From the IMG/VR virus record IMGVR_UViG_3300027983_000009, positions 1-64,000 of that record: DNA of 64,000 bases; one strand, written 5' to 3'. Below, piece by piece: positions 49,810 through 51,801 of the stretch. The stretch comes from a virus. How positions within the stretch are numbered: the first letter of the stretch is position 1; each line of letters opens with the position of its first letter. The notes beneath the pieces are model-generated. The model was not told the DNA's origin. It saw only the letters and a list, made by a program, of their open reading frames with translations, and searched no databases. Made by a program: the position numbers and the translations under genes.

Positions 49810-51801
49810 ATGACTGAAGTAACACGTAACTGGTGTTATGGAGCCAAGGCGCCAACGTTGAATGCCGACATGGTGGACCACCAGCTTTGGCTGGCCCACA
49901 ATTACAAGAACCGGCACATCGAGCTGGAGCGGAACAGGCGAATTACTGCGGATGCGTTCGCCAGATCTCTTCACCCACAGTTCGAACTGGATGCCGCAGA
50001 ATATGAGGTTGCAGACGCTGCAGTGGATGCAGCGTTCGACCTACTTAAAGCTGAGCGGATTGCGGCACGGAGCCGTGTAGACGCGACGCCGGCGGTTGCT
50101 GCAGCAATCAGGGAAGCTAAGCGGATCCGGTGTGATGTAGGTGCTCGCAAGAAAATAAGCTCGAGAGCTGCATACAAGCTGGTCAATGAGTCGCAGGAGC
50201 CGTACAAAGAGAGAGCTGCGGCTGAGACAGTTATTCCGGAGGGGACAACCCCTGCAGCTCGTGATCAGCTGATTTATCGCAATAGGTTGGCGATGATGGA
50301 GGCGGCTGGCGTAGATGCCGGCGCCAAGGTGATGTACGACGCCAGACTCGCAGCCCGCGAAGAGTTCCGCGATCTTGGGCTGAATTGGGGCACCTACCTG
50401 ACGGTGGAGGCTGCGACAAAGGACTACCACAAAGGAGCACCCCCGGAATTTCGCAGATTTGATGGTCGCGGGTCCATCGGTGTGCAGATACAGGTAGGCG
50501 GAGGATTAACGTATGCTGCTGCTGTTGCCTGCGCGAATACGTTTTTGAGAATTCAGTTGCCACCACTATCTGAGCGGTTGGCAACAACAGGCTCGGACAG
50601 CGGCGTGCAGGCTCACGGGGTGGCGTGGTTAAGGATCGGCTCAGTCGGACACCAACCGATCTGGGCGACAGTCCCTTTTGTGTACAGTCGCGAGATTCCG
50701 CACGATGCTGTAATCAAGTGGGCGTACCTGGACAGGGTTCGTGTCGGCCAGAAGTATCACTGGAAGCTGCGGCTTAACCTGAAGACTTCGCAGGTCAGGA
50801 GGCCGGCAGAGAACAGAGATATGGTTGCAGCCCATCTCGGGTACAGGCTGGTAGGCGAAGAAATCCGTGTGCTGACAACCTTGGATACCAGCGGAGAAGT
50901 AAGCACCCTCTCCATCTCGCGGGAAGAGGTGGCAGCGTTCGGTTACATGCGCAAGCTGGAGTCGATCCGAGAGAATGCCTCGAATCTGGTGACAGCAGCT
51001 CTCGGTCGCTGGTCGCGTGTAGCTAATATCTCAGAGTGGTTCCAGGAACATTCGGACAACATCTCAAGGTGGCGAGGCCCTGAGAGGATGAGTCGACTTG
51101 CCCGGTCTTGGCGTGATAACAGGTTCGACGCAGACCAATCTTCGTCTGCAGAGATTCCTGAGTTTTTGGAGTGGGCGCAGCTCAAGCTGGAGGAGTACCG
51201 GAGACAGCCGCACTATCGGCCGACCAACCCGGATGATTTGACTACAGTTTTCGGGGTGGTAGAGTTCTGGAGGAAGTACGACAAGCACCTGTGTGAATGG
51301 TCGGCGAATCAGTCGCGGAAATGTATCGCAAGGCGTGAGCAGCTCTACAGGACATATGCTGCTAATTTGGCCAGGCGGTACAACGCGTTGGCGATTCCGG
51401 ATGTTGACTGGGCCGAGCTTCGAGAAAAGCCAGCGGTCGACGAGACAGATGCGCAGAGCAAGGAATTGCGGAGATTGGCATCTATCGTCTCACCGGGCAG
51501 ACTATCGGCAATCCTGGTCGAGGTGTTCAGCGACCGAGCTCACAAGACAGCCGCTCAGGGGATGACTATCATCTGCAATGCGTGCGGTAAGGTCCATGAG
51601 TTCGACAAGAAGCAGCGTGTGACAACTTGTGTCCACTGCGGGGCAACGTGGGACCAGGATGAGAATGCTGTCCGCAACACGTTGGCAAATGGCCTGGTAA
51701 AGCGGGCGAGGGTAGAGTCCAGAAACGGGGCACCAGATCCGGACGCCCCTGTGAAAGTGCGAGCGGTCAGACGGGACCGGAGGAGACCTGCTACGACGTA
51801 G
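49810..51801 (+). CDS. cas12m: Cas12m-like (type V-M) RNA-guided DNA-binding effector, RuvC inactivated
   Basis: QLWLAHN, LNWGTY, FRRFDGRGSIGVQIQ, RIGS..QPIW, RuvC-I VAAHLGYR (D>H), WRGPER, LYR..A, RuvC-II AIPD (E lost), SPGRL, CNAC/CVHC Zn finger, RuvC-III WDQDENA. Confidence 0.8.
   Translation: MTEVTRNWCYGAKAPTLNADMVDHQLWLAHNYKNRHIELERNRRITADAFARSLHPQFELDAAEYEVADAAVDAAFDLLKAERIAARSRVDATPAVAAAIREAKRIRCDVGARKKISSRAAYKLVNESQEPYKERAAAETVIPEGTTPAARDQLIYRNRLAMMEAAGVDAGAKVMYDARLAAREEFRDLGLNWGTYLTVEAATKDYHKGAPPEFRRFDGRGSIGVQIQVGGGLTYAAAVACANTFLRIQLPPLSERLATTGSDSGVQAHGVAWLRIGSVGHQPIWATVPFVYSREIPHDAVIKWAYLDRVRVGQKYHWKLRLNLKTSQVRRPAENRDMVAAHLGYRLVGEEIRVLTTLDTSGEVSTLSISREEVAAFGYMRKLESIRENASNLVTAALGRWSRVANISEWFQEHSDNISRWRGPERMSRLARSWRDNRFDADQSSSAEIPEFLEWAQLKLEEYRRQPHYRPTNPDDLTTVFGVVEFWRKYDKHLCEWSANQSRKCIARREQLYRTYAANLARRYNALAIPDVDWAELREKPAVDETDAQSKELRRLASIVSPGRLSAILVEVFSDRAHKTAAQGMTIICNACGKVHEFDKKQRVTTCVHCGATWDQDENAVRNTLANGLVKRARVESRNGAPDPDAPVKVRAVRRDRRRPATT

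Follow-up and report, generated by a model that had tools for sequence, protein, structure and literature searches.

A phage Cas12m-family protein with a non-canonical RuvC site and its putative partnership with solitary CRISPR-repeat-like hairpins

The cas12m locus

The window analysed here, a 64,000-nt stretch of viral DNA, is the first 64 kb of the IMG/VR record IMGVR_UViG_3300027983_000009, which is linear, 82,680 bp long, and has a CheckV completeness of 57%. At 49810..51801 on the + strand it carries a cas12m-family gene that opens with ATG and encodes a protein of 663 residues, labelled P0001, and on each side of the gene stands a hairpin resembling the repeats of Cas12m CRISPR arrays. 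Cas12m proteins are small, naturally non-cutting DNA binders of bacterial CRISPR loci, and have been used in base and epigenome editing.

A first-pass annotation, made from the letters of the sequence, had read this open reading frame (ORF) as a stand-alone Cas12m-like effector with a doubly inactivated RuvC domain. The ORF exists as given there, and the motifs lie where it placed them: AAHLGYR at RuvC-I (His342), AIPDVDW at RuvC-II (Pro530 in place of Glu), WDQDENA at RuvC-III (Asp617), and a CxxC...CxxC (CCCC) zinc finger whose cysteines C589, C592, C607, and C610 are invariant in 15 of 15 aligned homologues. It had also noted the lack of cas1, cas2, and tnpA, and neither Cas1 (PF01867), Cas2 (PF09827), nor the Y1 transposase (PF01797) has a match in the 82,680-bp record, in which positive controls did match; as the record is linear and 57% complete, this absence holds for the recorded DNA only.

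Scans of P0001 with Pfam, PHROG, and NCBIfam gave nothing beyond sub-threshold matches to zinc-ribbon/TNB and TnpB C-terminal models (Cas12f1-like TNB, 22.2 bits against a cut-off of 26.3; NCBIfam TnpB models, 15–24 bits against cut-offs of 100–425) and are useless for telling the family, so that the assignment rests on a sequence search of the PDB and on a fold search. With phmmer against all PDB chains, the first three matches are the Cas12m protein 23vw_A (E 3.1e-44), UnCas12m4a (E 2.7e-15), and Cas12m2 (E 2.9e-14), followed by LaTranC (E 0.0063) and by TnpB at E ≥ 0.05. An AlphaFold2 model, calculated from a 79-sequence alignment of unmodified homologues, has a mean predicted local distance difference test score (pLDDT) of 93.5 and a predicted template modelling score (pTM) of 0.87, and shows the parts of the Cas12m fold, namely WED, REC with a coiled coil, and RuvC with an inserted zinc-finger TNB. 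When this model is compared with the PDB by Foldseek, Cas12m structures take the first four places (Cas12m2 8hhl, 8hio, and 8hhm, and GoCas12m 8pm4; E 8.5e-28 to 3.7e-21; template modelling (TM) scores 0.55–0.73), whereas the next best is a Cas12f (E 3.9e-8, TM normalised to the query 0.34), all TnpB and Cas12f structures stay at E ≥ 3.9e-8, and the best TnpB structure, 8iaz, reaches a query-normalised TM of 0.31.

The product of 49810..51801 is thus, with near certainty, a true member of the Cas12m (type V-M) family, which bears out the first-pass annotation in its choice of Cas12m over an IS605 TnpB. That annotation had pointed to clustering with TnpB and use of a long omegaRNA as the signs that it was wrong; Cas12m matches lead instead, and the associated RNA elements are of a 36-nt type and not of the ~150-nt omegaRNA type. 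An ordinary TnpB of an IS200/IS605 or IS607 element was rejected, as the TnpB models lie far under their cut-offs, the Y1 transposase is missing from the record, 8iaz is a poor structural match, and Rfam gives no match. Membership among the TnpB-derived TldR proteins was rejected too: the RuvC site is altered, yet descent by sequence, fold, and tree is from Cas12m. Of the kinship with TldR that the annotation had invoked, the functional analogy stands and the descent does not, since P0001 comes from CRISPR-associated Cas12m proteins whose relatives carry arrays.

A non-canonical RuvC site in a gene under purifying selection

In the phmmer alignment, His342, Pro530, and Asp617 fall opposite His317, Asp485, and Asp579 of Cas12m2, the residues of its non-cutting HDD site. 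As Omura 2023 (PMC10442227) describe it, one Mg ion, bound in Cas12m2 by the His and the last Asp, is kept against the displaced strand, and the site is unable to cut. Cas12m proteins with D-E-D, H-D-D, and N-D-D sites are all reported to bind DNA uncut (Bigelyte 2024, PMC11013384; PmCas12m preprint).

An exhaustive search of 1.84 billion cluster representatives returned at least 3000 relatives of P0001 at E ≤ 1e-3, of which 1078 reach E ≤ 1e-30. In the close clade identified first, 9 of 9 members have His, a non-acidic residue, and Asp, and in a FastTree phylogeny of 79 proteins 11 tips of this H-x-D type are monophyletic with support 1.0; their placement beside D-E-D and N-A-D proteins with arrays has a support of just 0.46. 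Among the 54 nearest aligned representatives, 37 are H-x-D, the middle residue being Ala in 21, Pro in 5, Ser in 3, Gly in 2, and Met, Asp, Thr, Ile, His, and Val in one each. The description 'doubly inactivated' is therefore apt for a RuvC site that is non-canonical and misleading if it implies decay, as His and Asp are kept in most of the nearest relatives and only the middle residue is free. A site with this pattern resembles the working single-metal site of Cas12m2 and not a dead relic, and H-P-D looks like a variant of the known, working, non-cutting HDD site.

Contigs from three further studies carry the cas12m gene in one piece; codon differences number 21 synonymous against 9 non-synonymous relative to contig L015, and 20 against 10 relative to L016 (L-numbers denote loci of relatives), with the RuvC triad and Ser293, a residue taken up below, absent from the listed changes. 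The gene is under purifying selection. Given a Cas12m-type protein with a non-canonical RuvC site, a binder and not a cutter is the reasonable reading, and by analogy with its characterised relatives P0001 very probably binds DNA without cutting it.

Solitary repeat hairpins across the genome

To see what RNA such a protein uses, the loci of its relatives are informative. Cas12m works with a 50–60-nt CRISPR RNA (crRNA) and no trans-activating crRNA (Bigelyte 2024, PMC11013384). We examined 103 loci (14 from IMG/VR, 80 of 142 from metagenomes, and 9 from genomes), 67 of which gave an array-like region with a crude k-mer detector, as a rule beginning within ~20–150 nt of the stop codon; the other 36 include many short contigs. 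The closest array-bearing relatives, L001, L018, and L019 (47% identity) and L017 (50%), are all H-A-D. Across other loci, 26 distinct repeats of 36–37 nt align to GT.GCAA.GCCTGC-stem-GGCTT....-stem-GAC and share a 6-bp stem and a pseudoknot in which the GCC segment pairs over 3 bp with the first bases of the loop (pairing in 88.0% of cells, and in 29–45% with the partners slid; covariation score 0.729 against at most 0.248). In their 3' GAC the G and A are invariant and the C nearly so. This stem and pseudoknot match the triplex-pseudoknot described as the core of the GoCas12m crRNA (Bigelyte 2024, PMC11013384).

No regular CRISPR array was found in the 82.7-kb record, itself about 57% complete. 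The first-pass annotation had seen one repeat on each side of cas12m, and these are real: one hairpin core, at 49699-49723, lies 21 nt past the stop of the previous ORF and 86 nt ahead of the cas12m ATG (38-nt window 49691..49728, + strand; pseudoknot GCC/GGC, stem TGCAGA/TCTGCA), and the other, at 51820-51844, lies 19 nt past the cas12m stop (51812..51849, + strand), its window beginning 11 nt after that stop, where the array of relatives begins. 'Stand-alone' is nonetheless the wrong word, because both are part of a family that numbers at least 24 repeat-like hairpins across the genome. A plain repeat search with no structure criterion found this family, including both cas12m-flanking copies. 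The 24 elements, 21 on the + strand and 3 on the − strand, are spread over ~37 kb; each is named below by a position 8 nt into its 38-nt window, so that element 47372 occupies 47364..47401.

The exact V-M geometry (a GC-only 3-nt segment, 3 nt, a 5-bp stem, the complement of the segment, 6 nt, and the stem again) occurs with perfect stems 15 times on the + strand and 3 times on the − strand, against 1.62 ± 1.37 (maximum 6) in 100 dinucleotide shuffles. The same scan yields 9.4 matches per 100 kb-strand outside arrays on other loci and so is not specific alone. A looser structure scan allowing any linker or loop length (21 on the + strand and 19 on the − strand against 12.6 ± 2.5 shuffled) was barely enriched and was dropped. 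A covariance model, R1, built from the 26 repeats of other loci only and used for ranking alone, put elements of this phage at 9 of its 13 best matches in the genome, with 31 of 39 matches on the + strand; the copy behind cas12m ranks seventh. At the first pseudoknot pair, 17 of the 24 elements have G-C and the other 7 have C-G, so that none fails to pair. Element 47372 (47364..47401, + strand) has unpaired bases identical to those of the CRISPR repeat of L001 (ATGCCTAC ... GGCTTCGTA) and a different, fully compensated stem.

The + strand elements all lie between co-oriented genes, and those outside the tandem cluster and the adjacent pairs stand 10–63 nt past the stop of the previous long ORF. 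In seven of them (26234, 28790, 38703, 48640, 53433, 55412, and 55956) a start codon follows 13–24 nt past the stem. Apart from the copies already described, solitary hairpins lie on the + strand at 25911..25948; at 26226..26263, 19 nt before an ATG; at 28782..28819, of a CCC/GGG class with one stem mismatch, 19 nt before the ATG at 28834; at 38695..38732, of the ATGCCTAC..GGCTTCGTA class; at 48632..48669 and 53425..53462, each 18 nt before an ATG; at 53667..53704, first in the R1 ranking and the sole element ending in the canonical GAC; at 54971..55008; at 55404..55441, 14 nt before an ATG; and at 55948..55985, of the CCC/GGG class, 24 nt before the ATG at 56005. Two adjacent hairpins occupy 60004..60081, and another, at 61408..61445, lies within a chimeric 49-codon ORF and is followed by a ~80-nt duplicate of 61129-61205. 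An irregular cluster of five hairpins of the CCC/GGG class, spaced by 91, 65, 81, and 55, fills 29742..30071 upstream of a gene starting at 30106.

Some local features accompany these elements. Between the five clustered hairpins, at 29695-30105, stand 14-nt units of the CTCACATATAC(G/T)CTCT type, up to three consecutively, which are candidate promoters, binding sites, or targets. The chimeric ORF (61356-61504, + strand) starts like the gene at 61680, carries its hairpin in frame mid-way, and ends by duplicating the 3' end of the gene at 60875-61189. At 54400-54445 there is a truncated element, comprising only the 3' half of a repeat hairpin (GGCTTCGTATCTGCGGAC), behind an unrelated hairpin. 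The exact patterns of the two main element classes had no match in viral contigs, and a looser pattern was uninformative, returning the L001 contig and two single-copy records. In partial viral records without a Cas12m homologue, single ATGCCTAC..GGCTTCGTA motifs were seen at L106 884-905 and L107 559-580 (both − strand); these could be solitary repeats in other phages.

The three − strand elements differ in their setting. At 43440..43545 (TTGACC-16-TACAGT) and at 61217..61322 and 62489..62594 (both TTGACT-16-TACAGT), a promoter-like sequence precedes a repeat hairpin and locus-specific sequence. The three blocks of ~104 nt are 86–91% alike; their alignment runs through a conserved TTGAC[TC]-16-TACAGT, ~10 nt, and the hairpin, and right past the hairpin divergence is complete. 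A sigma-70-type promoter scan independently recovers all three, and downstream of them no long ORF is present on the − strand. Transcription from these promoters would start a few nt before the GCC segment, so that the RNA would begin like a processed crRNA.

Co-variation of protein and repeat

In Cas12m2, His269 and Arg270 read base C(-1) of the crRNA handle and stack on the crRNA G(-23):A(-2) pair, according to Omura 2023 (PMC10442227). In the phmmer alignment their counterparts in P0001 are Ser293 and Arg294. The His269 column holds His in 70 of 79 aligned proteins. Loci with His yielded 30 repeat strings, of which 25 end in GAC and five do not. Where the residue departs from His, the base does too: Asp accompanies repeats ending in GAG at L004, L064, L088, and L100, four loci that sit in different parts of the tree; Gln at L103 likewise accompanies GAG; and Glu at L052 accompanies GAT. 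Residue and last base thus track each other, which could amount to a specificity code for the crRNA handle: C for His, G for Asp or Gln, and T for Glu.

Of the 24 elements of this phage, 18 end in A, 3 in C, 2 in G, and 1 in T. P0001 therefore departs from the norm at the very residue that reads the base at which the elements depart from it, which is our main argument that protein and hairpins are partners, and the protein is probably partnered with the genome-wide set of solitary repeats. The first-pass annotation had also suggested a protein tolerant of diverse scaffolds, and this gains some support from a Ser in place of the handle-reading His and from a handle whose 3' end is not the GAC invariant in the family.

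Gene cassettes that differ between near-identical phages

Contigs 96–98% identical to this phage (L015, L016, and runs X5, X10, and X6) differ from it by whole gene cassettes. At four or more junctions the left edge of the differing DNA falls 2–3 nt past the hairpin stem, which is the repeat-spacer border, whereas right edges do not fall at hairpins. The exchange sites lie at 47398, 48656-48664, 53667-53705, 54374-54381, and 61443 in the window, and at 1425-1452 and 6420-7186 in L016. In that variant the core of hairpin 53675 is precisely missing and an extra copy is present near 54375. In these comparisons the repeat acts, at its 3' edge, like a hot spot for recombination or insertion.

Proposed role and alternatives

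We suggest that this phage carries an array-less Cas12m, a non-cutting, RNA-guided binder fed by solitary repeats. In this explanation the array usually found behind a cas12m gene would here be reduced to one repeat; P0001 would load RNAs that begin with solitary repeats; the ~18–20 nt past each repeat would serve as a fixed guide; and, as in the Cas12m family generally, the complex would bind double-stranded DNA under RNA guidance and leave it uncut, the retained His and Asp probably positioning a single metal ion at the displaced strand, as they do in Cas12m2. Such P0001-RNA complexes could act as programmable roadblocks or regulators, with DNA of a rival phage, of the host, or of the phage itself as possible targets. 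As a whole we hold this account to be somewhat better than an even bet. Its components differ in strength: that P0001 works with the dispersed repeats is probable, and that it acts through guide-directed DNA binding, and not on RNA only, is a possibility to which we would give slightly less than even weight. In RNAs of the CreR, crlRNA, or Cracr types, a degenerate repeat and a short spacer go with a partial, PAM-flanked match to a promoter; this phage has the degenerate single repeats and, as candidate targets, two weak leads with three mismatches each: the guide of 47372 at 47541, with a TTT flank, and that of 53675 at 49766, a site shortly ahead of the cas12m start and flanked by GGG. The characterised protospacer-adjacent motif (PAM) of Cas12m is reported as 5'-TTN or YTN. 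None of the 24 elements ends in TTN, an outcome with a chance expectation of about one in five, so that if TTN is the PAM here the elements' own loci would be spared.

Several observations weigh against this explanation. A normal array may lie elsewhere, as the record is only about 57% complete. When the 20 nt after each element were compared with the rest of the genome, 19 of 24 did no better than 400 random 20-mers; the better matches of 60012 and 29842 are neighbouring elements and trivial, and a 19/20 match of 61416 at 61129 was rejected as target evidence because it is part of the ~80-nt duplication. Sigma-70-like promoters are not enriched ahead of the + strand elements (11 sites against 10.5 expected), and these elements, having no promoter-like sites of their own, would need to be processed from messenger RNAs (mRNAs). 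No element in this genome is individually significant with R1 (best E 0.22). On the relatives' structure the 24 elements, in fixed 38-nt windows, have 94.4% of cells paired against 34–51% slid, a value inflated because the elements were partly chosen by the geometry being tested, though the structure-free repeat search tempers this concern. Only one of the 24 ends in GAC, and at position −2 the elements vary where true repeats have A. The pairing of Ser with A comes from a single genome with paralogous elements, and Ser at 293 is not unique, being found in 4 of the 54 nearest representatives; the loci of two Ser293 relatives, P0018 and P0020, were not found among viral contigs. Finally, the D485A change in Cas12m2, which creates an HAD site, is reported to lower DNA binding and silencing (Omura 2023, PMC10442227), so that H-A-D and H-P-D proteins may bind DNA less tightly.

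A bolder form of the same idea, which we put forward tentatively and consider rather unlikely in full, is that the phage has made a nuclease-dead Cas12m the hub of a regulon of its own. The array would have been lost in favour of about two dozen fixed 'guide genes', the handle residue would have co-evolved with them (His to Ser, C(-1) to A(-1)), and the repeat edge would also organise cassette exchange. Some guide genes would lie in mRNA leaders, with the leader and start of the next gene as the guide, and the three − strand cassettes would be free-standing promoter-repeat-guide units.

The arrangement of the + strand elements lends itself to another reading, in which P0001 binds, and perhaps cuts beside, hairpins in the polycistronic mRNAs of the phage and so controls the stability or translation of the next gene, with no targeting of DNA. 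All 21 + strand elements fit such a role by their position between co-oriented genes and their lack of promoter-like sites; where a start codon follows so closely, as in seven of them, the ribosome-binding site (RBS) falls in the would-be guide seed. L001 has the same layout ahead of its own cas12m, the second of its leader repeats running into the RBS and GTG start of the gene. Processing of Cas12m pre-crRNA is described as independent of the RuvC site (PMC10442227, PMC11013384), and both the guides without convincing targets in the genome and the loosely kept 3' end of the handle would suit a hairpin-only role. This reading leaves unexplained the three promoter-driven − strand cassettes, which have no downstream gene; the clade-wide His and Asp and the entire REC/WED/RuvC/TNB fold suggest that engagement of DNA has been kept; and mRNA regulation is known for no Cas12m. 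We regard it as unlikely.

An array-fed explanation comes next, in which an ordinary phage V-M system excludes rival phages with an array encoded in the ~43% of the genome that the record lacks, and the solitary repeats either have an accessory part in regulation, like CreR or the solitary repeat units (SRUs) of type V-A loci, or are leftovers. The record is linear and incomplete, sister phages do have arrays, and SRUs beside cas12a are reported as common in V-A loci (Shmakov 2023, 10.1101/2023.03.03.530964). Sister arrays also appear to be functional: one L019 spacer (8440-8476) matches 37/37 inside the cas12m gene of its sibling phages L001 (11512-11548) and L018 (7512-7548), the site there has a 5'-GGTTT flank, of TTN type, and the cas12m of L019 itself is mismatched near the PAM-proximal (seed) end. 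This looks like phage-against-phage targeting of a rival's effector gene, and, judging by this single case, H-A-D proteins seem to work with ordinary spacers and a TTN-type PAM in phage-phage conflict. The 384 unique spacers of relatives gave no match above 15 nt (E 0.019) in the 82.7-kb record. Against an ordinary system in the present phage, the detected arrays of relatives mostly start right behind the gene, where here one repeat is followed by other genes; the same post-gene layout recurs in the variant phage from three other studies; 24 copies over 37 kb exceed the needs of a regulator of the cas locus; and in the sister L001 the motif is confined to the cas12m locus, with all 11 copies in its 39-kb record being accounted for by 9 in the array and 2 in the cas12m leader. 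We judge such a system to be improbable.

It is more improbable still that the solitary repeats are RNA anti-CRISPR decoys of the Racr or Cracr kind, mimicking the repeats of a host V-M system to soak up or redirect the host Cas12m, with the phage protein as a side issue. Viral SRUs that inhibit host Cas proteins are documented (PMC10651486; Cracr, 10.1101/2024.10.29.618823), and a Lar-type anti-restriction gene lies 1.2 kb upstream of cas12m; however, the phage itself encodes the cognate protein and keeps it under purifying selection, and the handle-reading residue shifts in step with the −1 base of the elements, which points to the phage protein as the partner. Least probable of all, to the point of being hardly credible, is a relic whose array was lost, whose protein is on its way out, and whose hairpins are unrelated recombination or terminator elements, for although the record has no array, RuvC-II is lost, and hairpins mark indel edges between near-identical phages, the codon changes, the confident full-length fold, and the conserved His and Asp speak for a maintained protein, the hairpins have the V-M pseudoknot and agree with a sister phage's repeat in their unpaired bases, and there are no T-runs past them and 0 terminator-like sites in 49400-52200.

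Relation to characterised systems

By sequence the closest solved relative of P0001 is 23vw_A (577 residues, 'CRISPR-associated DNA-binding protein Cas12m'), which, unlike P0001, reads D..E..D at the three RuvC positions. By structure it is Cas12m2, or MmCas12m, of Mycolicibacterium mucogenicum (8hhl, 8hio; PMC10442227), with a full-length match in fold (Foldseek E 8.5e-28; TM 0.66/0.73) and in common with P0001 the RuvC-I His, the RuvC-III Asp, the zinc-finger TNB, the arginine at Arg294 (Arg270 in Cas12m2), and repeats with a stem and pseudoknot. The two are only ~20% identical; P0001 has Pro for the middle Asp, Ser for His269, a CCCC in place of an HCCC zinc finger, and two insertions of ~30–36 residues common to its own clade, and it is phage-borne, with no array on record and dispersed single repeats. 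GoCas12m (8pm4; PMC11013384) and its kin are described from CRISPR loci of bacterial genomes; a paper on 23vw itself did not turn up in the literature.

A phage-encoded Cas12m has been reported from myxophage MV-1 (MvCas12m; bioRxiv 10.64898/2026.09.14.751636, September 2026), which its authors present as the first found in a phage. Like P0001 it comes without cas1 and cas2, and also without cas4; unlike P0001 it has a D-E-D triad and an adjacent eight-spacer array, and the available text of the preprint makes no mention of dispersed repeats. Degenerate single repeats outside arrays, some in the leader of a cas gene, are described for the SRUs upstream of cas12a (Shmakov 2023, 10.1101/2023.03.03.530964), and CreR (10.1101/2023.03.10.532045), phage Cracr (10.1101/2024.10.29.618823), and Racr (PMC10651486) are further solitary repeats whose RNAs are able to bind a Cas effector. 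As described, these number from one to a few at each locus and rely on, or hijack, the Cas proteins of a host, whereas here about two dozen are spread over at least 37 kb together with an effector of the phage's own. The best analogy for how P0001 may work is TldR (10.1101/2023.11.30.569447; PMC13418256), some of which are prophage-encoded: TldR proteins are described as RNA-guided transcription factors with a nuclease-dead RuvC and a fixed guide and, unlike P0001, derive from TnpB and keep an omegaRNA-type guide. An array-less phage Cas12m with dispersed repeats was not found in the literature searched. The supplementary tables of Cas12m variants (Bigelyte 2024, Wu 2022), which lay outside that search, may already list H-A-D or H-P-D members.

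Three things are new here. One is a large His-x-Asp branch of Cas12m, apparently viral in large part, whose members differ freely at the middle catalytic residue. Another is a phage effector that selection maintains in a record without an array, next to many solitary repeats, some of them behind promoters of their own. Such a combination suggests that the phage uses a CRISPR protein with built-in, fixed guides, for which no description was found in the literature searched. The third is the co-variation of residue and handle base across the family, which would give a simple rule by which Cas12m proteins and scaffolds could be matched or re-engineered, and should the regulon idea be true, the phage would run a natural CRISPR interference network.

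Neighbouring genes and other features

The long ORFs of the window are nearly all on the + strand. PHROG and Pfam scans of 16 large ORFs recognised a UvsX-like recombinase, a DUF4942 protein with a methyltransferase, a radical SAM protein, a sulfotransferase, and little else, and as no capsid, portal, or terminase was recognised among them, the viral status of the DNA rests on the IMG/VR record. Rfam at its gathering threshold and ARAGORN returned nothing in the window.

The setting of cas12m in an accessory region, as first annotated, fits both the cassettes that differ between near-identical phages and the small ORFs around the gene, which include a helix-turn-helix protein. Directly upstream of cas12m, at 49241-49678 on the + strand (49241-49675 without the stop), is a gene with a phage ProQ C-terminal-like domain (PF24203, E 2.2e-11), whose product, of an RNA-chaperone family, may act on structured RNAs of the cas12m region. 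The Lar restriction-alleviation domain gene occupies 48126-48608 on the + strand (48126-48605 without the stop; PF14354, E 1.9e-7), and in variant L016 its first half is swapped for another small gene and a hairpin.

Two other parts of the window are highly repetitive. The + strand ORF at 31585-34623, of 1012 residues, consists almost entirely of degenerate 12-nt (four-residue) repeats and has faint PHROG matches. At 35100-37350, Gly/Tyr/Asn-rich tandem repeats with periods of 6, 12, and 18 nt run through several similar short genes that lie ~317–347 nt apart.

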